Assembly (NCBI GenBank): GCA_019058315.1
Contig: JAHPZH010000007.1
Span: 32,001 to 96,000, forward strand
Reading direction: 5' to 3'
From: Candidatus Helarchaeota archaeon
GTDB taxonomy: Archaea > Asgardarchaeota > Lokiarchaeia > Helarchaeales > RDOG01
Length of the DNA stretch: 64,000 nucleotides
The notes under the pieces: model-generated
What the model was told of the DNA's origin: nothing
Databases searched by the model: none
The model's input: only the letters and a program-made list of their open reading frames with translations
Program-made: the position numbers and the translations under genes
In this document: positions 1-16,272 of the stretch, piece after piece
How positions within the stretch are numbered: position 1 is the first letter of the stretch
Layout of the letters: each line of letters starts with the position of its first letter

Positions 1-3000
1 TTCTTAATTTTCTCGCTTTCTACTTCTCTAACGAAATAAGGTATTTTTTTTAAGTTAAATTTCTTTTCTTTTTGTAATTTCAGGATTAAATTCAAATGTA
101 AATAATGATTTAATGTTCTTTTTATTATTTTTCTTATTTCTTTTTCATCATTACTATTAAAATCTCTAATATTTTGAATTAAAGAAGTAAAAAATTCCTC
201 AGTCAAATTAGAATTAAAATATTTCAAAATCTCACAATGCAAATCATACCATTTTGCCCTTATTCCTGGTTTGGTATATATTGATTTTTTAAAAATCTCT
301 ACAACCCTTTTAAGCAACTTTTTTTTAGTTATTGGATGAATCCCCTCTATTAAATCATATCCAATTTTTTCATAATAAGAAATTTTTTTGGATGAATTAT
401 CTTTATTCCAATTAAATTGGAAAAAATTGTAAGAATAACGTTCCAACATATTTAATAAATCCCTAAGAGAAGAAATCTTTTTACAAATATCCGTATTGAG
501 AAAATGTAAAAAAAATTCTTCAAAATTCTTAAAATTATCCTCGTAATTATTTTTAAAGAATCTTATCACACTTGGAATTCGCTTATTACCTCTTTGCTCT
601 TTTTTTACTCTTCCACCAAGATCTTCAAATATCTTTAAATTTATGTTTTTTGAATCTTGGATATAGATATAAAAACTATCTCCATGCCACAGACAAATAT
701 CAATAGATTGCCCATGTTTGGTATTATTTAAGAGCAAGCTTAAATCTTCCTTTTCAATATCTTTTTTAAACTTAAAGAGAACATATTTTACACCGAATTT
801 AGTCATTCCTTCTAAATAATATTGTAATTCAGAAGTTTTAGAATCAAAACTCAATTGAGTTTCCCTGATTAAATGGGGATAGCTGATACCTGAAAAATCA
901 AATTTAGGAAATTTTTTTCGTCTTAAGATGATGTCGCATTTTTCATTAGCATAACCATATAATTTCACATATTTTCCAAAGGATTTTTTTAGAAAAATTT
1001 CTGTATCAAAAACTGGCATGAGTTTATAGGGCTCAAATCTTCTGTTTCTATAAATATTACTATCGTAAACCATTTGTGTTAATATAATTATAGAATTTGT
1101 CTCCCTTGCAATGAATTTTAACATTGTGGTAAAATTTCCTGCAATGCTTGCCCTCTTCCAAGTAGGAGATAGTTCTTCGTTATCTCCATTGATGGGAATA
1201 TTTCTTTGAATCTGAGTAATTAATGAGTTAACTATAATTAATTTGGGATGAAATTTATTCTTAATATCAATTAACCTTTGTAAGATCGAGTCTATATTAT
1301 CATTGTCGGAAAATGGGATGAAATGGACTCTCTTAAGATTTTCAATATTATAATTTTTAAAATTTCTAGAGATATCAGCTAAATTTTTATAAAAAGGGAA
1401 TTTTAAGTTATTTAAACAAACTACACTTTCTGAATTTAACCCATCCTCATGTTGTGCTGCTAACATGAGGTAACAGATTAAATCCATTAACTGTTTTTCT
1501 TCGTTTTTGTGACAAAAAATTAAGTTAAAGGAACCACAATTAAATCCTTCAGCTCGGCTTTTTTTCCAGCCAAATATTTCGATCCTTGTTCCCTTTTGTA
1601 TATTACGACCTAATTCAATTTTACCGTCAGAGATAAGTCTGATTTCATTTTCTTTAGGGATCTTATCAACAACCTCTAACTCTTCCCCTGTCCAATCGAA
1701 CTTTTTCTGAAGTGGAGGGTATATAATAGCCAAATTCATTTTAATTATTTTTTTATTTAATAAAATCTCAGTACCCTCTTTAAATTCCTGAGAAACCTCA
1801 AAAAAGATATGATTTTGTTCAGTTACTAATTTATCAATATCGGTGAATGTAGGAAAACAAGGTTTTGTTTCTGGAATGTGATCTATTGATTTAGAATAAC
1901 CGCTCTCAACCACATTAAAGTAAGTTTTTTTAAGGGAGAAGTTTTCATGATATTCTTCTTCATAATGGGGTAATAAATCACAAATCTTAATCCTACTCAA
2001 GAATTCAATAAAACTAATATATTGACCCAGTTGTAAAAACTGATAACCGCCATCCACACATTTATTCATGGGATCTAATACAGTTAGAGCAGTTTTATGA
2101 CCCATGCTTTTATTAAAAATGTTGTGAAGGTCAATTTTTTTGGATGTTCGTATAGCTATTTCTTTTGTAGTCCAACAAATGATTTTAATATCTATGTTTT
2201 CTGGATTTCTTCCTAAGTTTTTAATCAAGGTATTTATTTTCCTAATTGGAATATCTTTTTTTAATTCAAATGCTGCATAATTAAATCCATTCCGAGTATT
2301 CCCAAATTCGTAAAAATAGAGTAGCTTCTCAGGATTTTTAAGGAGATTTTCTCTCCGTTTTAAAAATTTTTCCAACTCTTTTGTTTTATTTGGCTTTGAA
2401 TATGCACACACTTCACGGAAAAATTTAGCAAAATCTATATTTTTTATAAATCTGAAGATATTATAAAGATAAAATTCATAAAAATCAAACCAATCATTTA
2501 TATAATTATTTTCATTAATGGTCGCAATCCAATTTTTAAAATTCTTAAGATTTGGTCTACCATATTTATTAAAAAATTCATCTTCATCAACAATTTCGTT
2601 AACATATTGAATTGTTAAATCATAAGCTTCCCTTTCTTTGGAATATAAAAACTCCCCATTATGTTCTTCAAATAGACTTTTTATATTATTTAGGTCATTT
2701 TCAGATTCTATTACTGGGTGATGATCAAACCAGATTAATTTGAAATTAAAGTATCTGTCTTCAAGTTGCTCAAAAAATATTTTAAGGAATTTTTCTCGAC
2801 CTGGTAAGAATGGAATGTCTGCAACATAAATATAATTCATCATATCGTGCTTTAAAGACTTTAAAACTTTATTTTCAAGAACCTTTTCAATATAGTTTAG
2901 ACCATATCTATTTGTTGCTGGAAAGATCGATAATATGTTATTTTTTCCTTGATGTAGAAATGTCAAGTTTACAGCAGACTTAAAACCATCCTTATCAACA

Positions 3001-6000
3001 TGAGGAATAATGCAGACATTTATCCAAGGTTCTAACTCAGGAATTCCCTTCTCCTTAGGAGATAAGAAAAAATCTAAGATTGTTAGGGTATCTTGAATCA
3101 TAATATTTCTATAAAATAGATCTTCATCCTCCAACTCAATGTATTGGGGAATATTCCCATTTCCCAAAATAGAGTCAATTATATTTACAATATTAAAAAC
3201 CCATTTTGCTTCTTTTTTTGTTTCAAAGGCACAAAAAGGAATATATTCAATATTATTTTTTGATTTCAAGAATTGAGCAAGATTTTTAGCTTCGAGCTCC
3301 ATAATCTGGAGCATAGATAATTCTTTATTCTTATAATAGAATTTTTTTGAACATACATCTTGGAATAATGTATCTAGTTTTTTCTTTGCCTTACATTTAC
3401 TTGAAACATAAAATAATTCTCTCCCTAATTCGTCCATTCCCCTCCATACGTCTTTTCTAAAAATTCTATTATCTATAAACATTTCAACTAAATAATATCT
3501 TAATGGTGGTCTATAAGCATCCATGAAATCAAAAAGTAACTCCTTATTTTTCTTAGTCATTGCCCCATAAAAGGTCTCATTTCTTTTCCCGCTATTTGCA
3601 CGATAATGCAATATTCCAGGTCCAGGGAAAAATCGATTAAATCCGACTTTACCTAAAGCTTTGCCTGCTTCTTTTTGTAATAAAATATATAGATAATTCA
3701 AGCATGCATTAAACACATCATAAGCCTTTGCACCATAATAAAAAATTGTCTCGGCGTATCTCTGTGCTTGCCGGCCAACAAAGCGAAATTTTGGGGGTAA
3801 AGCCCGTTTGATCACTTCCCAAGCATTTTTTTCTGAATTTCCTTCAGCAGAACGTAATCTATTCATGATATCTATTATTTCTTGTTCATTATGAGGTTCA
3901 TAAGAAGCATTATAAAATAAATATGTTAAAAGCAACCAATCAAGTTGACCATAAAGGAGTTTATCTTGATATTTCTTTATAACCCACGGTTTGTTTAATT
4001 CTGTAATGAATTTCGAGACTAATTTTCTTGTATAAAGCACATTTGACATTATTTTTGCAAAAACCATTTGTCTACCGACTTCCATCAAATCCCCTTTTGC
4101 TCTCCGATCTATTATTTTATTTCTAATCAAACTCTCGGATCTTTCCCTTTTCTCCGCTTCAAGTATTTCTTCTTTGTTATGTTCAATTAATTCTATTCGA
4201 TGTAAGTCAATAAAATTCATTGCTTCTTTACTTATTGTCCCTCCGAATAATTCAATTCTTCCCACCGCATCTATAAAGTAACGTCTTTTATTACCAGATA
4301 TATAAAAACGAAATACTTTATCTTTCGAGTCATAATCAACCCGTAATTCATGTCGCTTTTTCACAATTAGATTGTACGCATAATTTTTAACATTAGCTAT
4401 TAAAAAGCCATTAATTTCTTTGATTTTATTAGTTATTTGTTTATAAATTCCTGTTTTTCCCTCAAACATTCCCCTCTCTCCCATATATACCACTAATTTA
4501 CAATTCTTACAAATTGATGCAACTCCATATATGGGAATTAATAGTGTATTTATTTCACCACATTCAGGGCATTTTGGTTTGTCATCATGAATTTCAAAAC
4601 TTTTAAATTGAATATATTTACGTTCTATTTCTTCAAAATCATCACATATTTTTTGCTTTGGAGAACGTTCTTTTTTCTTAAAATTACATCTATATCTACA
4701 ATTTATTCTCTTTCTTCGATCATGAGGATGTTTTTGCAAGTGTTGGCAATCTTTACATGTTTTTTCTTGAGATTTTTCAAAATATTTCTTTAAAAAATAT
4801 CGATATGGAGGTCTTCCTATTACTTGATATTCTTGAACACAAACAACTCTATCTGAAAGTTTATCTAAGTGTGCTCTAATTTTACGAAGACTAATATCAC
4901 CATAAAGATTCATATACAACTCTTTTACTGTTAGTCCATTTTTACCAGCTATTTCTAATAGCTTTAATATTTCTTCATCAAGCATTGAAGGAGCTTTATT
5001 TCTCCAATTAATCTTGTGACGCCAAATCCCCGGTTTTTTACCTTTCTTTTCGATTTCTTCTTTTTGGTAACGTCTATAGATCTTATTAAGGGTATGAAAT
5101 ATTGTCTTATTTTCATCAAATACTCTAGTAAAATCAACTTCGTAGTAATTTTGTCCCTTCTCTTTAACAATTTTTTCGACATATTCATGGATTCTGCAAC
5201 CTTCACAGAAGAGATATAATGATGCAGCAAGCCAAATACTGGTTTTTCGATAATTTTCAATATCTCCATCATAAAGTCCTTTTTTATAATTCTCTTTTTC
5301 TTCTTGTTCTAGATCCCAGCGATAATTCTGTAATAAATCTCGAATTTTATCTTTCTTTTCTAGTACATAATCCCTTTGAAGTGCTTTTAAATCTTGAAAC
5401 CTAGGGTCCTCTTTAAGAAGAATCTTTGTTGCAGTATTAGTAAGGATATTGATACAAGAGCTGGGCGAGGGCTTATTATTATATAAAAACAAAAATGAAA
5501 ATTCATCAGCAGTTAAAATATCAACTTGCGATTCAACTGCTGCCTCCCCTATATATGTGAGCCCCATCACCTTTTTACTTGATCTTATATAAATTGTGTT
5601 AAGCAGATCATTGACAATTCTCCTAAGTCTATATCGAACATATCTATGTGTTAATCTTGTAAATTCATCACGCGTTATTTTTTTCCTTATATCTTCTGTT
5701 TCTTTTTTATTAATTTTATATAATTCCAAATTTCTTTCATTTTTTGCCCTTAAAATGAGCTTTTTAATATATTTCTTCCATTTTTTAAAAGATATTTGAT
5801 GATAAAATAACCTTTCAATTGCTAACTTTTCAATATCTTTTAAAGTAATTCTGCTTCTAATCTCATCAAGCTTAAAACCTCTAAAACGAAAATTCTTAGG
5901 TATTTTTTCTGATTTTTGATCTTGCTCTTTTATTTTCTTATCCTTGATTAGAAGAATTTTCTCTTCAAAATCATTTTTCAATAATTTCGAAACAAAAAAT

Positions 6001-7292
6001 ATTATATTCCCTTCTTTTTCTCTGGTTCTACCAATCATTTGAGTAAGTTCAACTGAGTTATAAATTTCAGCATCAGTTATTAGTATTGTATGGATGTTCT
6101 TGATATCTACTCCAACTTCCAATACAGGACTGCAAAAAAGGAATCGAATTTTATCATCCTTCATAAATTCGTTAAATTTTCTTTTTCTAATCTCTAAATC
6201 CAACCCTGCATGTATGTAATCAACATGAAAAGCAACTTTTTTTTCATTAATAAATTGCATATATTCTTCAAATTCTCTACCATATTCAGTATCAAGATCT
6301 GAAAATACAGCATTTGCGATATAATTTTTTGGATTAACATATGGAACCTTACCAAAATTTTCCCATACGAACATAGCGAGGGCTTCTGCAATCCTACGGC
6401 TATAGGTGAAAATGAGCATTTTGCCAGAAGTTTTTTTATCATTTTTCACAATATCATATAAAAATTTCTCACAATGTTTCAATGTTCTAAATAGCTTTTC
6501 ATAATATGCCCTAATATTATCAAACTTTAAGCGAGTCTTAATGAACTTTTCAACATCTGAAAATTTGTATTTTTTCAATAACTTTTTTCTTTCCCTCTTC
6601 CATATATGTTTAAAATCACCATATTTCTTTTGAATTATTTCTCCTTTAAAATTTCGTTCATTTGATCTAAAAATAAGTTCACAATTAAATTTTTTAGCCC
6701 AATTTTCTGCTGATTTTCTTTCAAAACTCCCACTTAAAAAACAAAATTGAACATCTTCATGCTCACGCTGAATTTTATATAACATCGTTTCGAGTTTTAA
6801 GCCACGAGATCTTTCTCCTAATTTATGAGCTTCATCAATAATAACCGCTCCAAATATTTTCTTTCCATAGAAATATCTTCTCTTTTGTATCTCAAAAAGG
6901 AATGAGCGAAATGCTTCATATGTTGCGATAATTATTGCATTCCCCATAGCATTTCTTAAATCATCAAGAGCAGGTCTAATTTCTGCTTGTAATTTTAATA
7001 TTTTTATTTCTCTTTGATATTCTCTTTCTAATTCAATAGCTTTTTGATGTAAAAGCATCACTGTCGGAACCAAATATACAGGAATTAAATTTCTGACTAA
7101 AGCCATTGTAGTACAAATTTTTGCAATTTCGGTTTTACCCATACCTGTTGGTGCAACTACAAAAACACTTCGACCTTTAATTACAAATTTATATCCTTTT
7201 TTTTGATATTTATGTAGTTTGCTAAGTAAGAAATTTCTACGCTTCGAACTCTTGTCTGCCTTCTCAATATTTCTAGAAATCGTCTCAAACAT
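1..7292 (-). CDS. Giant multidomain protein (>=2430 aa, 3'-truncated by window): Ski2/Hel308-like helicase + wHTH + Cys/Zn modules + Cas1 + DHH/DHHA1 + degenerate RecA-like + second DHHA1-like
   Basis: Manual translation from ATG 7292 (MFETISRNIE...) to position 3 finds no stop. Helicase motifs: APTGMGKT (7131-7154), IIDEAH (DEAH 6825-6836), LSGS, LIFTYSRR, HAGL, LEVGVDI, QMIGRTR (6021-6041). Cas1 motifs: LRSAEG, FVGR..AYDVFNACLNYLY, GILH, LLFDFMDAYRP (~3230-4380). DHH motifs: HVDKDG (2985-3002), YVADIP, WFDHHP (DHH 2718-2726). Confidence 0.9.
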   Translation of the reverse strand, partial: MFETISRNIEKADKSSKRRNFLLSKLHKYQKKGYKFVIKGRSVFVVAPTGMGKTEIAKICTTMALVRNLIPVYLVPTVMLLHQKAIELEREYQREIKILKLQAEIRPALDDLRNAMGNAIIIATYEAFRSFLFEIQKRRYFYGKKIFGAVIIDEAHKLGERSRGLKLETMLYKIQREHEDVQFCFLSGSFERKSAENWAKKFNCELIFRSNERNFKGEIIQKKYGDFKHIWKRERKKLLKKYKFSDVEKFIKTRLKFDNIRAYYEKLFRTLKHCEKFLYDIVKNDKKTSGKMLIFTYSRRIAEALAMFVWENFGKVPYVNPKNYIANAVFSDLDTEYGREFEEYMQFINEKKVAFHVDYIHAGLDLEIRKRKFNEFMKDDKIRFLFCSPVLEVGVDIKNIHTILITDAEIYNSVELTQMIGRTREKEGNIIFFVSKLLKNDFEEKILLIKDKKIKEQDQKSEKIPKNFRFRGFKLDEIRSRITLKDIEKLAIERLFYHQISFKKWKKYIKKLILRAKNERNLELYKINKKETEDIRKKITRDEFTRLTHRYVRYRLRRIVNDLLNTIYIRSSKKVMGLTYIGEAAVESQVDILTADEFSFLFLYNNKPSPSSCINILTNTATKILLKEDPRFQDLKALQRDYVLEKKDKIRDLLQNYRWDLEQEEKENYKKGLYDGDIENYRKTSIWLAASLYLFCEGCRIHEYVEKIVKEKGQNYYEVDFTRVFDENKTIFHTLNKIYRRYQKEEIEKKGKKPGIWRHKINWRNKAPSMLDEEILKLLEIAGKNGLTVKELYMNLYGDISLRKIRAHLDKLSDRVVCVQEYQVIGRPPYRYFLKKYFEKSQEKTCKDCQHLQKHPHDRRKRINCRYRCNFKKKERSPKQKICDDFEEIERKYIQFKSFEIHDDKPKCPECGEINTLLIPIYGVASICKNCKLVVYMGERGMFEGKTGIYKQITNKIKEINGFLIANVKNYAYNLIVKKRHELRVDYDSKDKVFRFYISGNKRRYFIDAVGRIELFGGTISKEAMNFIDLHRIELIEHNKEEILEAEKRERSESLIRNKIIDRRAKGDLMEVGRQMVFAKIMSNVLYTRKLVSKFITELNKPWVIKKYQDKLLYGQLDWLLLTYLFYNASYEPHNEQEIIDIMNRLRSAEGNSEKNAWEVIKRALPPKFRFVGRQAQRYAETIFYYGAKAYDVFNACLNYLYILLQKEAGKALGKVGFNRFFPGPGILHYRANSGKRNETFYGAMTKKNKELLFDFMDAYRPPLRYYLVEMFIDNRIFRKDVWRGMDELGRELFYVSSKCKAKKKLDTLFQDVCSKKFYYKNKELSMLQIMELEAKNLAQFLKSKNNIEYIPFCAFETKKEAKWVFNIVNIIDSILGNGNIPQYIELEDEDLFYRNIMIQDTLTILDFFLSPKEKGIPELEPWINVCIIPHVDKDGFKSAVNLTFLHQGKNNILSIFPATNRYGLNYIEKVLENKVLKSLKHDMMNYIYVADIPFLPGREKFLKIFFEQLEDRYFNFKLIWFDHHPVIESENDLNNIKSLFEEHNGEFLYSKEREAYDLTIQYVNEIVDEDEFFNKYGRPNLKNFKNWIATINENNYINDWFDFYEFYLYNIFRFIKNIDFAKFFREVCAYSKPNKTKELEKFLKRRENLLKNPEKLLYFYEFGNTRNGFNYAAFELKKDIPIRKINTLIKNLGRNPENIDIKIICWTTKEIAIRTSKKIDLHNIFNKSMGHKTALTVLDPMNKCVDGGYQFLQLGQYISFIEFLSRIKICDLLPHYEEEYHENFSLKKTYFNVVESGYSKSIDHIPETKPCFPTFTDIDKLVTEQNHIFFEVSQEFKEGTEILLNKKIIKMNLAIIYPPLQKKFDWTGEELEVVDKIPKENEIRLISDGKIELGRNIQKGTRIEIFGWKKSRAEGFNCGSFNLIFCHKNEEKQLMDLICYLMLAAQHEDGLNSESVVCLNNLKFPFYKNLADISRNFKNYNIENLKRVHFIPFSDNDNIDSILQRLIDIKNKFHPKLIIVNSLITQIQRNIPINGDNEELSPTWKRASIAGNFTTMLKFIARETNSIIILTQMVYDSNIYRNRRFEPYKLMPVFDTEIFLKKSFGKYVKLYGYANEKCDIILRRKKFPKFDFSGISYPHLIRETQLSFDSKTSELQYYLEGMTKFGVKYVLFKFKKDIEKEDLSLLLNNTKHGQSIDICLWHGDSFYIYIQDSKNINLKIFEDLGGRVKKEQRGNKRIPSVIRFFKNNYEDNFKNFEEFFLHFLNTDICKKISSLRDLLNMLERYSYNFFQFNWNKDNSSKKISYYEKIGYDLIEGIHPITKKKLLKRVVEIFKKSIYTKPGIRAKWYDLHCEILKYFNSNLTEEFFTSLIQNIRDFNSNDEKEIRKIIKRTLNHYLHLNLILKLQKEKKFNLKKIPYFVREVESEKIK

Positions 7293-7594: not shown

Positions 7595-8620
7595 TCATAG
7601 AAAATTACCAGAATTAAGTTCACTTAATAAAAAATTTTTTTCTATTCCTTTATAATAACCTCTCGTAACAAGGCTACCCTCTAGAAATCCGATTTTCCTT
7701 AAAAAACTTTTTTTATCTTTTTTCCTTACGATTAATAAATGGGTATATTTATCATTGATTAAATAATTGATGTTAAAATGATTATGAATTTCTCCTATTT
7801 CATATAAGAAATCAAGATTTTTTTGAGCCCCAATAAGCCAAAATCTCTTATATTTTTTGGATACAGTTATACCCCCATCATCTGCCCAAAAACATCGAAG
7901 AAACTCTCGTTTAAATTCGGAAGGACCAGCCTTTATCACTTCTGGAACTTGAATATTATTTGATTTACAACTGTAAGATGGTGCATATTTCATTAAATCT
8001 TGAATAGCTAAAATTGAGTTGTAATTAATAGATACGCAATTTTTATGGTTTTCATCAAATATACCATTATTTTCAAGTCCATATACAGTTTTCACATCAT
8101 TGATAAACTGCTGAATTACTTTTGGTGATGAACAGATAAATCTAAAGTAATTATTTCCTTTTCTATCATTGACAGAACCATCAAAAAGCATATGACTAAT
8201 GATTCTTATTTTTTCAATTGTCATTTTCTCTTGTTCCTTTATTGGTTTATATCTACTTTCTTGAAACTCTTTTGACTTCCATTTTTGTTTCATTATACGA
8301 CTAAAATGAATTCGACTTTGTTCTCTTTTAGAGGGGGTTACATTTGCAAGCTTAGCCCCCTTACTACAACCCCAATTTGGGGGGAATACTACAAATTGGA
8401 AGTCATATTTTGATTTACTGATAATTTTCAGACACTCAATAAATAAAGATTCCGGAATTGTAGATATTCCAGATCTATAATTATATAAATTATTCTTTGG
8501 TATATCCATCTTAATTGAAAGTTGCTTAAAAGTAACTTTCTTCCTTAATAAATCAAAGAATTTCTTCAAATCTAGTTTTTCTAATTTAATCCTGTTTTCT
8601 TTTGTATTTCTACCTTTCAT
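7595..8620 (-). CDS. Free-standing double-motif LAGLIDADG (DOD/intein-type) endonuclease with N-terminal HTH
   Basis: IISHMLFDGSV and FLRCFWADDGGI motifs; N-terminal TFKQLSIKMDIPKNNLYNYRSG is HTH-like; no intein splice motifs. Confidence 0.75.
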   Translation of the reverse strand: MKGRNTKENRIKLEKLDLKKFFDLLRKKVTFKQLSIKMDIPKNNLYNYRSGISTIPESLFIECLKIISKSKYDFQFVVFPPNWGCSKGAKLANVTPSKREQSRIHFSRIMKQKWKSKEFQESRYKPIKEQEKMTIEKIRIISHMLFDGSVNDRKGNNYFRFICSSPKVIQQFINDVKTVYGLENNGIFDENHKNCVSINYNSILAIQDLMKYAPSYSCKSNNIQVPEVIKAGPSEFKREFLRCFWADDGGITVSKKYKRFWLIGAQKNLDFLYEIGEIHNHFNINYLINDKYTHLLIVRKKDKKSFLRKIGFLEGSLVTRGYYKGIEKNFLLSELNSGNFL

Positions 8621-8667: not shown

Positions 8668-9969
8668 TCATTTTAGAAAATTCGATAAAAACGTTTGATT
8701 CTTAAAAAAGAGGCGGTAATCAAATTTTTGCATGTTTTGTAATGTTTTTTTAGTTTTTCTCCCATATTTTTTTATAATATAGTTTTGCATCTCATCTGGG
8801 TCTACTGTATAAGGGACTTCAATCAAAATTATCCCATTTTCTTTACATATTTTTCTTTTTATTTGGTCTCTTTTTTGTTGTTTTTTGAATCTTTTTTCAG
8901 TGGAGTGGAAAAATGAGTTATATTCATAATGCTGTAATCCATTATATTCAAATGCTAGTTTTAATTCTCGATTATAGCCATCTAGATGCATTTTTTCAAT
9001 TTTATAATCTCCAAATTCAATTTGATATTTTTCCAAAATTGTTTTATCAAGAAAAACATCATTTAAGGTAGTCGTAGGAAATTCTTTTTCAAATATTGCT
9101 TCAAAATAGCACCGACAAATTCGTTCATTAAATCCTTTCATACAATTAGGACACCAATGCCCCCTTAGAACATGTGTAGGTCTTGCTTCCCAGATATTTT
9201 TACATGCTCCGCATTGCCATTTATATTTCATATTAACATAAATATATTTTTTAGATGTGGATATTTTAGATAAAAATTTCCCAGGATAACCAGTCTTTTC
9301 CAAACCTATATCATATGCTATTTTATGCATCTCTGTTATAGAATGTCTTGCTTTTCCAGAACATCTTGGACACCAAGAATCCCCTCTTCGGATATGATCT
9401 GCAGTTGTTTCCCAAATATAGCCGCATTTCCCACATTGCCACTCATATTTTGTGTCTGTATTAATGTATTCTTTTGATAAGAATTTTCCTGGCTTCCCCG
9501 TGTTTTTTATTCCCATATCATGGGCAGCCTTATACATGTCATCTATACTAAGTTGAAGATTTTTCGCACAATTTGGACACCAAGCCCCCCTTCTCACATG
9601 ATCTGCCCTTGATTCCCAAATATAATTACATTTTCCGCATTGCCATTCATATTTTGTGTTAACATTAATGTATTTTTTTGATAAGAATTTTCCTGGCTTT
9701 CCCGTCTTCTTTAGACCTACTTCATGGGCAGTTTTATGCATTTCATCTATAGTGAGCCTACGATTCCCAGCACAATTTGGACACCAGCCCCCTTGCTTTA
9801 CTGAATCTGCCGTAACTTTCCATATATAGTTGCATTTTCCGCATTGCCACTTGTATTTTGTTTTAATATCAATATATTTTTTTGATAAGAACTTTCCTGG
9901 CTTCCCTGTCTTTTTTATTCCTATATCATGAGCTGTTTTATGCATATTTTTTATATCATATTTTTTCAT
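8668..9969 (-). CDS. Four-repeat Zn-ribbon (treble-clef/DUF4379-like) protein with C-terminal PD-(D/E)xK (Vsr/DUF559-like) nuclease
   Basis: 4x KYxWQCGxCxxIW...WCPxC; C-terminal LDGYNRELKLAFEYNGLQHY...RDQIKRKICKENGIILIEVPY. ATG 9969 preferred over track TTG 9987 because an AGGTG SD precedes it. Confidence 0.8.
   Translation of the reverse strand: MKKYDIKNMHKTAHDIGIKKTGKPGKFLSKKYIDIKTKYKWQCGKCNYIWKVTADSVKQGGWCPNCAGNRRLTIDEMHKTAHEVGLKKTGKPGKFLSKKYINVNTKYEWQCGKCNYIWESRADHVRRGAWCPNCAKNLQLSIDDMYKAAHDMGIKNTGKPGKFLSKEYINTDTKYEWQCGKCGYIWETTADHIRRGDSWCPRCSGKARHSITEMHKIAYDIGLEKTGYPGKFLSKISTSKKYIYVNMKYKWQCGACKNIWEARPTHVLRGHWCPNCMKGFNERICRCYFEAIFEKEFPTTTLNDVFLDKTILEKYQIEFGDYKIEKMHLDGYNRELKLAFEYNGLQHYEYNSFFHSTEKRFKKQQKRDQIKRKICKENGIILIEVPYTVDPDEMQNYIIKKYGRKTKKTLQNMQKFDYRLFFKNQTFLSNFLK
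9140..9960 (-). repeat. Intragenic tandem repeat, 4 units of ~204-207 bp
   Basis: GATAAGAA(T/C)TTTCCTGGCTT at 9476, 9680 and 9884 (204-bp period), with a degenerate copy at 9269. Confidence 0.9.
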
Positions 9970-10220
9970 ATAAACACCTAATTTCAAGATTTTTTTACTT
10001 AATAATATTATAGAATGCGCAGAATATATGTTTTGTTATATATAAAGAAGAGTTTTTGCGCAAATTTAATTTAAGGGTTATTAATTTTTCCATTAATTTT
10101 CATTATCTATTTATAGAATTCCATTAGGTAATTCTGGGTCACTTAAAAGGAGTAATAACAAAATAGATAATATTCAATTAATTATTAAAAAAAAAGTAAT
10201 GGAAAATAAACAGTGAAGAT

Positions 10221-11096
10221 CTAAAAATTGAAAAACTGGGGAGCCATCTTCATTCGAGCAGCTATTTCATAGACTCCCCATGCCCCACAGCCCCCATGGC
10301 CTAAACAATCTACATCATTCCCATAACAACAGAAGGGTTGCTCAAATCCATTATCTCCAAGATACATGGGAACAAAAAATCTCTTTATTGGGCAATTCTT
10401 AATTATTTCTGGTGCATTTTGAGATAACATAAGTTCAAATGCTAACTCTTTATTAAGAATATATTTTGGATATTTCTTTTTTAAAGCAATTACTTTTTTT
10501 ATCACTGGATCTCGTTCTTTTAAAGTTTTCCAGCCCAGATCTGATGTATCGTTCTTTCTCGGAACATAAAAAGAGAAAATAATACCTCTAATAGGAGTTT
10601 CCTTACGTAAAATCTCGATTATTTCTTCAAAGCAATCCTCATTCTTTTTTGTAATTACGCATTGGCTTTGAAGGTCTCCTTCAAAATCGTCTGGTAGATT
10701 ATTTAGATTAGCTATAACTTTTTTAAAGGTCCCTTTTCCCCGAACTTCATCATTTACTTCTTCTGGACCATCTATTGAAACACACCATTTTGTTTTTTTT
10801 CCCAAATTTATTAATGGGAGAGTTCCATTTGTGGTAATAACATTTCTGGAGAATATTTTTATCCCTGGTCTTAATACATCTTTTCTTAATAATGGCTCAC
10901 CCCCCATCCAAACCATTGAGAAGATACCATAGTGGTTTCTGTATTTTTTAATTTCTTTTAACATGACTTCTGTAGGCATTTCGCTTTCTTTAGTTGGTAT
11001 GTTTGGGTTTCCCTCCCTAAAAACAAAGCAATGTTTGCATCTTAGGTTACATCTATTAGTTACATTTATCATAGCCATTGGGCGGAATTCTTTCAT
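10221..11096 (-). CDS. Radical SAM protein with Cys-rich C-terminus
   Basis: CNLRCKHC, GGEPLL, TTNG, VSIDG motifs. Confidence 0.9.
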   Translation of the reverse strand: MKEFRPMAMINVTNRCNLRCKHCFVFREGNPNIPTKESEMPTEVMLKEIKKYRNHYGIFSMVWMGGEPLLRKDVLRPGIKIFSRNVITTNGTLPLINLGKKTKWCVSIDGPEEVNDEVRGKGTFKKVIANLNNLPDDFEGDLQSQCVITKKNEDCFEEIIEILRKETPIRGIIFSFYVPRKNDTSDLGWKTLKERDPVIKKVIALKKKYPKYILNKELAFELMLSQNAPEIIKNCPIKRFFVPMYLGDNGFEQPFCCYGNDVDCLGHGGCGAWGVYEIAARMKMAPQFFNF

Positions 11097-14104: not shown

Positions 14105-14836
14105 CTGAAGATAAATCCCCCAACTTTGGAAGCCATCATCTTCTCAGGTGGTGGCGGACTCGTGATTCGAAAGCAAAAAATTAAAATAACTCCTGGAATG
14201 AATTACTTCGAAATTATGGACGTACCAGCTTCCTATGATCCCGAACAAGTCATCGCTGAATTAGAAGGAGAAAATGTAAATAATGTAAAAATCACCCAAT
14301 TGAGTCTAAAATTGCCAGATAGAACGATTGTAAATATGGTAATTCAACGTGAAAGAAATGCTTCTAATAACATAATATCAAGTGCAACGGATCTTCGAGC
14401 AGAATCCCGAAAGGAAATTTTAGCTATTTGTGAATCAGCATATTATAGACAATATGAAGACATGCTTGGAGAATTAAATATTACAGTTCAATCCGATATT
14501 CAAGGAGAAATAAATTTATCCATTAAATATTTCTTCAATGACACCCGAATTCGCTGGAAACCGGGAGTTCAAGTAGATTTGGACGAAAAAACCAATAATG
14601 CAAGAATAATTGGATATATAAATGTCGATAACAATTCAGATCTTCTTTTAGAAAACGTTGAATTGAAATTTGCAGAATTTGATCTTGCAGAAGCTCCTGT
14701 CGGTGAGAATGAAGATGAATTTGATTTTGAAGGAGAAGAAGAATTTGGTGAAGCACCAAGAGCAGCACCGGGAAGACCAGCGGCTAAGAAAAAGGTTTAT
14801 AAAAGAGTTCAACGATTAAAACAACTTTTAGCGTGA
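14105..14836 (+). CDS. DUF4140-like N-terminal-half protein, paralog 1 (probable CTG start)
   Basis: Highly similar to 14892..15596; in-frame CTG at 14105 gives (M)KINPPTLEAIIFSGGGG matching the paralog start; AGGAG SD at 14091-14095. Confidence 0.7.
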   Translation: MKINPPTLEAIIFSGGGGLVIRKQKIKITPGMNYFEIMDVPASYDPEQVIAELEGENVNNVKITQLSLKLPDRTIVNMVIQRERNASNNIISSATDLRAESRKEILAICESAYYRQYEDMLGELNITVQSDIQGEINLSIKYFFNDTRIRWKPGVQVDLDEKTNNARIIGYINVDNNSDLLLENVELKFAEFDLAEAPVGENEDEFDFEGEEEFGEAPRAAPGRPAAKKKVYKRVQRLKQLLA

Positions 14837-14891
14837 AGAAAAGATGATAAAAATGAGGGAACTTTAAATTGACCAAATGGAGGATCTTTAA

Positions 14892-15596
14892 ATGAAAATT
14901 AATCCACCAATAACAGATGCCATCATCTTTTCTGGTGGTGGCGGACTAGTAATTAGAAAGCAAAAAACTAAGGTTTCGCCAGGAAAAAATAATTTTGAAA
15001 TAATGGACGTACCTGCAAGTTTCGATCCAGAGCAAGTTATTGTAGAAATTGTAAGTGAATTTCAAGATAAAGTCAAACTAAGTCAATTAAGCATTAAACT
15101 GCCAGATAAAACAATTGTCAACATGGGTATTTCACGAGAAAGAACGGCTTCCAATAACATAATCACTAACGCGACTGATTTGAGAGCGGAATCAAGAAAA
15201 AAAATACTTGCCATTTGTGAATCTGCATATTATAGGCAATATGAAGATATGTTTGGAGAGATCGATGTTGTAGTGACCTCAGAAGTAGATACCGAAATCG
15301 ATCTTACTTTAAAATACTTCATTATAGATTTGCGAATTCGTTGGAAACCCGGAGTTCAGGTAGACTTGGATGAAAAAAACAATTCTGCCAAGATAGTAGG
15401 TTACATTAATGTTGATAACAATTCGGATTTCATTTTTGAAAATGTAGAGCTAGAATTTGCGGAATTCGACCTTGCCCCTACTCCTGTCATGCCTGTCGGC
15501 GGTGAAGCTGAGCAAGTAGCATTTGCTCAAATGCAAATACCTGCTAATGAAAATATTTTGAGAAATGTTCGACGATTAAAAAGGAGATTTAAGTGA
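14892..15596 (+). CDS. DUF4140-like N-terminal-half protein, paralog 2
   Basis: AIIFSGGGGLVIR, LxLKYF..IRWKP.V.VDL...GYINVDNNS..FENVEL pattern resembles DUF4140 and the start of DUF4139. Confidence 0.65.
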   Translation: MKINPPITDAIIFSGGGGLVIRKQKTKVSPGKNNFEIMDVPASFDPEQVIVEIVSEFQDKVKLSQLSIKLPDKTIVNMGISRERTASNNIITNATDLRAESRKKILAICESAYYRQYEDMFGEIDVVVTSEVDTEIDLTLKYFIIDLRIRWKPGVQVDLDEKNNSAKIVGYINVDNNSDFIFENVELEFAEFDLAPTPVMPVGGEAEQVAFAQMQIPANENILRNVRRLKRRFK

Positions 15597-15606
15597 GGTT
15601 ATTAAT

Positions 15607-16272
15607 ATGAAAGCAACTTTATATCCCAGAAAAAAAATTAGATTAGAATGGTTTAAATTTGAAAGTGTTCCTTTCGAGATAAACCGAGAAACAGAAATAA
15701 AATATGCTGTTTCCTCGGCTCAATACGATAAATTAACCCATATGACGAAAATCCAGTATATATTTAATAATCTAAATAAAGATATTCCCCAAACTGACCT
15801 AATTGTCATGGAAAAAGGCCTACCAACTCTTTATTCAAGAACACCAGGATCAGTTGCAGGAAAATTATCTTCCGAAAAACATGACGACACTAGTATAGAA
15901 ATAAATGATTTATTAGTTAAAGTTGAGCGAGGAAAAGAAGAAATAAAAAGAGAACCACCAGAACATCCTGATCCAAGGATTAAAGAAATAGAAACCCGTA
16001 GAAGAAAAGATCTCATTCAAAGAAAAATTACCTTAAAAAATATTTCAAATAAGCGCGTTCAAAATTTAAAATTAAAGTATATTGAAGTTAAGGAAGTTCG
16101 CTACGAATCATCTGTTCCAGAACCTACGAAAAAAGACTTACCCGAATATATATGGGAAATTTCTTTGGATCCTGATCAAAGTACCTCAGTAGAATTAAGT
16201 GTGGTCGTAGAAATCGTGAAGACATTCAGGATTGAGAAAGAACCAGTAGTAAGATCTCAAAAATTTGAATAA
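15607..16272 (+). CDS. Hypothetical protein resembling the DUF4139 C-terminal half
   Basis: RKITLKNIS...YIWEISLDPDQSTSVELSVVVE; 10 bp downstream of the paralog pair. Confidence 0.55.
   Translation: MKATLYPRKKIRLEWFKFESVPFEINRETEIKYAVSSAQYDKLTHMTKIQYIFNNLNKDIPQTDLIVMEKGLPTLYSRTPGSVAGKLSSEKHDDTSIEINDLLVKVERGKEEIKREPPEHPDPRIKEIETRRRKDLIQRKITLKNISNKRVQNLKLKYIEVKEVRYESSVPEPTKKDLPEYIWEISLDPDQSTSVELSVVVEIVKTFRIEKEPVVRSQKFE

Follow-up and report, generated by a model that had tools for sequence, protein, structure and literature searches.

A 2,766-aa fusion protein at the left edge of the window

We analysed 64,000 nucleotides of a Candidatus Helarchaeota genome (contig JAHPZH010000007.1 of assembly GCA_019058315.1), here called the window, whose left end is occupied by a giant gene for a fused helicase, Cas1, DHH nuclease and RadA-like protein. 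In our working names the source genome, which is 94% complete, is G000, with C1, C2, C6, C7, C8, C10 and C11 among its contigs, and the window is G000:C7:32001-96000; L, G and P labels denote loci, genomes and homologous proteins. The gene lies on the minus strand at window 1..7292, which encodes aa 1-2430, and continues for 1,009 bp to the left. An original prediction, made from the sequence alone, had described an uninterrupted frame here with its stop outside the window. The frame is real: read from window 7292 it is stop-free across positions 3-7292, and extending the contig leftward located the stop codon at C7:30992, about 1 kb beyond the edge, giving a full product of 2,766 amino acids (aa).

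The same domain order was found in four paralogues in G000 (2,600, 2,147, at least 2,090 and 1,439 aa) and again in homologues recovered from independent samples (NCBI, ENA, JGI and Logan). The closest homologue, P0002, is 57% identical over the query region, carries the label Candidatus Helarchaeota, placing it in an Asgard host, and is colinear with the giant protein over aa ~580-2766. Compared with two homologues, identity at third codon positions was far below that at second positions in every domain including the C-terminal tail, which indicates purifying selection on all of them. An assembly artefact joining separate genes, a concern raised with the original prediction and suggested by so long a frame in a metagenome-assembled genome, is refuted by the domain order common to the four paralogues and by the colinear homologues from independent samples. 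The gene is real and intact.

Domain architecture

All domain coordinates are window positions on the minus strand. The protein begins with a Ski2/Hel308-type superfamily 2 (SF2) helicase (aa ~25-700; 5193..7220). Pfam placed DEAD at aa 28-194 and Helicase_C at aa 339-423, and a family profile compared with solved structures gave Brr2, Hel308 and Pol theta as the best helicase relatives, with Ski2 also found. Motifs I-VI are present, with Walker A K53, DEAH 153-156 and motifs III and VI intact, and together with the similarity to Brr2/Hel308 they place the domain in the Ski2/Hel308 group. The winged helix-turn-helix (wHTH) that had been proposed next is a putative one (aa ~770-835; 4788..4985), recognized in a confident predicted model by its topology only, three helices plus a hairpin. 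Two Cys clusters follow (aa ~846-931; 4500..4757), with weak matches to a Zn ribbon (eS27); the second cluster is invariant in 22 homologues (C908, C911, C928, C931).

The Cas1 domain (aa ~985-1360; 3213..4340) is supported by profile and fold searches. Pfam Cas_Cas1 matched aa 991-1281 above its cut-off (E 8e-10), the family profile matched Archaeoglobus Cas1 (E 1e-13) and the casposase 6opm (E 4e-12), and an AlphaFold model of aa 765-1400 (predicted local distance difference test, pLDDT, 85.7) matched the Cas1 structure 4n06 in Foldseek (E 6e-13). The catalytic residues E1150 (3843-3845), H1229 (3606-3608), and D1255 and D1258 (3519-3530), aligned to 4n06 and 6opm, are invariant in the 22 homologues. 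By both fold and E/H/D metal-binding residues the protein belongs to the Cas1 superfamily.

The second half is predicted less confidently (AlphaFold model of aa 1405-2320, pLDDT 64.8). A RecJ-like DHH plus DHHA1 nuclease (aa ~1421-1775; 1968..3032) matches DHH/RecJ structures (Z 17.1, root-mean-square deviation 4.0, 306 residues aligned) and keeps motifs I-III and the GH motif (H1431/D1433/D1435, D1492, DHH 1523-1525, GH 1731-1732), which assigns it to the DHH/RecJ nucleases. It is followed by a RadA/Rad51-fold domain (aa ~1881-2126; 915..1652), matching RadA/DMC1 (Z 18.6, root-mean-square deviation 2.8, 201 aligned) and found as Rad51/RadA by the family profile too. This domain has neither the Walker A glycines nor the lysine-threonine pair, and its Walker B Asp is Asn; with Walker A lost and Walker B altered relative to an active RadA/Rad51 recombinase, it is predicted from its residues to be dead. 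A second DHHA1-like unit (aa ~2148-2243; 564..851) was detected by hhalign with 96.6% probability. Up to this point the architecture agrees with the original prediction, which had also listed the helicase, the Cys clusters, Cas1, DHH plus DHHA1 and a degenerate RecA/RadA fold. The C-terminal tail (aa 2300-2766), which begins at 3..395 and is common only to the two closest homologues, had been called a tail of no known kind. It gave no stand-alone homologue of near length, no Protein Data Bank match and only Atlas scores below 0.8, but it contains a third DHHA1-like unit (aa 2559-2631) beyond the window; the DHHA1-like repeats score 15-21 bits, against less than 5 for shuffled controls.

Across the family the half from helicase to Cas1 is constant and the C-terminal half varies: the C1 copy has leucine-rich repeats there, and relatives in genome G077 lack this half. 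G000 also encodes a stand-alone DHH-RadA fusion (C1:380162-382117) and a RadA-DHH-SSB-like cluster (C11:631601-634922), which are possible sources of the C-terminal half.

The locus around the giant gene

Two co-oriented genes lie upstream of the giant gene on the minus strand. The nearer (7595..8620) encodes a 341-aa two-motif LAGLIDADG endonuclease of intein type with a probable N-terminal helix-turn-helix (HTH), and the other (8668..9987) a 439-aa protein with four treble-clef Zn repeats and a PD-(D/E)XK-type nuclease motif. Before both genes stands a TATA-like box with a TGCGCA palindrome on either side, the two standing 41 bp apart (10016..10062, minus strand). Pairs of TGCGCA at one spacing were observed five times, against 0.008 expected by chance. 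The motif has six sites in the genome (window 10016-10062, C6:304396, C6:232334, C7:1369, C10:11210 and C11:793485) and directly precedes nuclease genes at four of them, including tnpB in the C6 sister copy and a LAGLIDADG gene in a remnant on the same contig. At the window it is likely a promoter or operator and the approximate outer limit of the element on that side. We rejected it as an element end as unproven, the motif being found within the C6 element and at unrelated places as well.

No tnpB was found at the window locus, although a tnpB with an omega-RNA end adjoins the giant gene in the C6 copy and in the two C11 copies (C11a and C11b). Missing there too are the Cas7-/Cas5-like genes that stand beside the homologues P0006, P0012, P0014 and P0020, and we found no scaffold RNA, CRISPR array, guide-bearing gene, Rfam match or tRNA match at the locus. 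The absence of tnpB makes the locus a TnpB-less variant whose protein is a member of the aCas1-TnpB family.

Downstream of the giant gene is a gene for a 173-aa wHTH/coiled-coil protein whose sole paralogue sits beside the C11a giant gene. A 9.4-kb block with two HEAT-repeat genes (2,543 and 557 aa) lies between 39-bp direct repeats (36/39 identical; C7:20895 and 30373, or L001:895-933 and 10373-10411) that copy the last 13 codons of the 173-aa gene, and it looks like an insertion with a long duplication. An intact, inward-pointing radA-like gene stands at C7:18668, 11 kb beyond the giant gene, and the far sides of the C11a island, the C1 island and locus L092 likewise end in a radA-like gene that points inward. 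With about eleven RadA paralogues in the genome, we take this link as no more than suggestive. We give roughly even odds to an element extending from about window 10,070 leftward past the giant gene to the radA-like gene, ~24-26 kb in all.

Copies, remnants and relatives

Counting the window copy, G000 has the gene in full five times, at unrelated sites. Over 8.1 kb the two C11 copies share 81% identity, which stops at a sharp boundary, and their flanks differ. Two further sites, C2:383-384 kb and C6:230-232 kb, hold remnants with internal deletions. The C6 remnant (L027:4140-6390 = C6:230140-232388) retains the TGCGCA motif, a 632-aa HTH-LAGLIDADG gene and, after it, the 94 final codons of the giant gene (85% identical in DNA), so the promoter-LAGLIDADG-giant arrangement existed at a second site. 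The C2 remnant, a TnpB-type copy at the end of that contig (L026:7290-8600), and the C6 copy have a 164-bp 3' end in common. An omega-RNA end at a contig start (G000:C8:1-87) may be the other end of the C2 deleted copy. The tnpB-side end of C11a, C11b, C6 and the C8 remnant is a hairpin ending in GTAGTTCAT, an end also found on unlinked IS605-type TnpBs; in C11a it cuts an acyl-CoA synthetase gene off after ~90 codons.

The giant gene stands head-to-head with tnpB at seven loci (C6, C11a, C11b, L009, L028, L029 and L030), a pairing that takes up three of the six TnpB genes of G000. These TnpBs fall into two groups only 26% alike. At four other loci the head-to-head partner is a Cas7/Cas5-like operon (ARAMP). 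Across loci the giant gene is constant while its partners vary (two TnpB clades, ARAMP, LAGLIDADG), and the place beside it that a targeting or homing partner takes is conserved. With a single-protein query, the family was detected in only 3 of 41 relatives, a patchy distribution; G077 has four copies of a shorter relative, each at a different site.

A Cas1 tree of 62 rows, midpoint-rooted and built without casposases, grouped the window protein with P0002 and the TnpB-linked C6 copy (100/99), and then with the C11 copies (95/89), apart from the canonical clade of ~350-aa Cas1 proteins. The tree shows a divergent protein related to TnpB-linked Cas1s. TnpB- and ARAMP-linked proteins are interleaved in it, which suggests partner exchange, the backbone being poorly resolved.

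Cas7/Cas5-like genes and structured scaffold RNAs accompany the shorter relatives, which come from another Asgard family. Loci L078-L083 (genomes G077 and G092) hold multi-copy helicase-Cas1 plus Cas7/Cas5-like cassettes with two to three structured scaffolds of ~130 nt, and G077 has 21 scaffold matches. Internal scaffold tails match the cassette's own Cas7 promoter region and terminal tails extend into host DNA. The G077-type scaffold RNA was not found in G000. In a distant group, loci L084-L088 (G145, G244, G267 and G196), Cas1 lies in a gene of ~1,390 aa and a helicase-like product of ~1,055 aa has a gene of its own, alongside a 540-aa gene and a TnpB-like gene. Directly downstream of P0002, at L008:7636-14714, are a Druantia DruE-like helicase gene and other genes, preceded by a short tandem array.

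The giant protein as a candidate transposase

We read the giant protein as the transposase or integrase of a mobile element of Asgard (Helarchaeota-like) archaea that has no terminal inverted repeats and carries a swappable homing nuclease, at a probability of roughly 65%. The multiple copies, deleted derivatives, paralogue abutting a truncated host gene and patchy distribution make a transposase the best supported explanation. In the same direction points the finding of no Y1 or serine transposase, Cas2 or CRISPR array in the 94%-complete genome. The original prediction of a transposase of a new mobile element is the best supported reading in its first part; the element is not new in kind, the pairings with TnpB and with ARAMP being already published in PMC10691335 and PMC8730458. 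In the former, aCas1 at aCas1-TnpB loci is called a likely transposase.

Several results weigh against this reading. At candidate ends no terminal inverted repeat or target-site duplication rose above shuffled background, the true ends not being known. The search for empty sites proposed with the original prediction found none among relatives, whose flank genes are too distant or absent. The TnpB-side end does not prove that Cas1 made it, because it is an ordinary IS605 right end that unlinked TnpBs also have. The copies are old, the window copy being 44-57% identical to its nearest two, so recent movement of the window copy is unsupported. Finally, the TGCGCA motif occurs at three sites without a giant gene, one of them before a free LAGLIDADG-like gene, and may for this reason mark the site of a common regulator instead of an element end.

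Mechanistically, two chains would dimerise through Cas1, which would join 3'-OH element ends to target DNA, while the Hel308-type motor would open or peel off strands in the 3'-5' direction and the RecJ-like DHH domain would trim 5' single strands. The wHTH, Zn and extra DHHA1 units may bind DNA, and the dead RadA domain may act as a scaffold binding DNA or a recombinase. The partner nuclease would cut element-free alleles, and recombination would then restore the element. At the window, the RNA-guided partner would have been replaced by two protein-guided nucleases of homing type behind the same promoter motif. We infer all of these biochemical steps, and the homing role, from the known chemistry of each family; homing by cutting element-free alleles is established for TnpB of IS605 elements.

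One alternative, which we hold unlikely, is that the protein writes guides. Helicase and DHH would prepare foreign DNA, and Cas1 would place the prepared piece after a scaffold RNA gene, where it would serve TnpB or Cas7/Cas5 as a new guide, the window copy being an orphan or acting in trans. Cas1 is the CRISPR spacer integrase, and the related helicase-Cas1/ARAMP loci have two to three structured scaffolds of ~130 nt whose stems covary and whose 3' tails differ; some tails copy the element's own promoter region (31/31 nt in L079). Terminal scaffold tails, however, run into host flank as transposon ends do, the window locus has yielded no scaffold, array or guide-bearing gene, and the TnpB guides of G000 have no match of at least 14 nt in the window island. 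Copies at many sites and deleted derivatives would moreover still require a transposase. The CRISPR-independent defence or acquisition system of the original prediction finds little support for the window copy, beside which no array, Cas2 or guide-bearing partner was found in cis. No Cas2 (PF09827) match was obtained in G000, nor any CRISPR array genome-wide by a simple repeat-spacing scan.

It is also improbable that the gene is a domesticated helicase-nuclease of host defence or DNA repair, sitting in a defence island and using Cas1 as a nuclease or repair factor. Low-GC, nuclease-rich surroundings, the Druantia-like helicase adjoining the closest homologue, purifying selection on all domains and the loss of the TnpB partner from the window copy would all fit such a role. 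Yet the family is patchy and multi-copy, has no fixed position and leaves deleted derivatives; a place next to defence genes would be just as likely for cargo, and PADLOC returned only generic matches (helicase, Cas1).

We give little credence to the gene being a passenger of a TnpB/IS605-like or homing-endonuclease element moved by another recombinase. The standard IS605 right end on the TnpB side and the existence of unlinked TnpB copies without a transposase point that way, but no Y1 or serine TnpA was found in G000, the Cas1 catalytic residues are invariant, and it is the giant gene that stays constant as partners change. Two PolB genes occur in G000, neither near the window; we rejected the idea that the one next to the C6 copy is a casposon polymerase, as it sits outside the tnpB end.

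Relation to known systems

IS605/IS607 elements have a transposase gene, tnpA, head-to-head with the homing nuclease gene tnpB and lack inverted repeats. The family has the same layout, but a Cas1 fusion stands where those elements have a Y1 or serine transposase, and at the window the nuclease is protein-guided. Two settings are known in which Cas1 acts as an integrase: CRISPR adaptation and casposons. With casposons the family has in common a non-CRISPR Cas1 as integrase, and the casposase 6opm was the second-best profile and third-best fold match; unlike them, the window element has no PolB, no terminal inverted repeats or target duplication were found, and helicase, DHH and RadA domains are fused to Cas1 beside a homing-nuclease partner. 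Cas1 of CRISPR adaptation and its fusions (Cas4-Cas1, reverse transcriptase-Cas1) share the fold, the E/H/D site and a processing nuclease on the same chain, whereas for the giant protein, outside the canonical clade, no Cas2 or array was found.

Divergent Asgard Cas1 proteins paired with TnpB were described by Altae-Tran et al. 2023 (PMC10691335), who name the TnpB groups Cas1H-Asgard-1 and -2 and a GTTCA-type motif downstream of tnpB. The sister copies in G000 fit these loci in Asgard host, divergent Cas1, two TnpB groups and the motif; the window copy differs in lacking TnpB, no flanking repeats were found, and the main text of that paper says nothing of helicase, DHH or RadA domains. A distinct Cas1 is part of most ARAMPs according to PMC8730458, which calls their mechanism enigmatic. 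Close homologues of the giant protein adjoin Cas7/Cas5-like operons without a CRISPR array, as in ARAMPs, but the window locus has no Cas7/Cas5 genes. As far as we found, both Asgard pairings were published from computation, with no experimental test of them in the literature. Our literature search returned no text describing a helicase-Cas1-DHH-RadA fusion, a weak negative as most subscription papers were outside its reach. To this family the window locus contributes a TnpB-less form with homing endonucleases, a promoter motif shared with the C6 copy and the C6 remnant, and a protein with three DHHA1 units.

A third, helicase-driven setting for Cas1 in Asgard archaea has been guessed from gene neighbourhoods. 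At the window locus the protein is complete and intact, and the genome supplies a natural control by encoding this kind of integrase both beside an RNA-guided partner and without one. The locus makes testable the function of the Asgard Cas1 homologues and whether TnpB, ARAMP and homing endonucleases share one role for them. A wider proposal, which we advance tentatively, is a Cas1-based class of elements without inverted repeats in which one polypeptide would unwind, trim and integrate DNA and plug into exchangeable modules: TnpB, Cas7/Cas5 with scaffold RNAs, or, here, LAGLIDADG plus PD-(D/E)XK behind a TGCGCA operator. If so, the window copy would show the integrase working without any RNA guide.

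Other features

Just left of a 674-aa low-GC gene, at L002:16377-16412, a single GC-rich hairpin is followed by TCAA, resembling an IS200/IS605 end. Window 14126-16272 contains a tandem pair of paralogous genes of ~235 aa, followed by a 221-aa gene.
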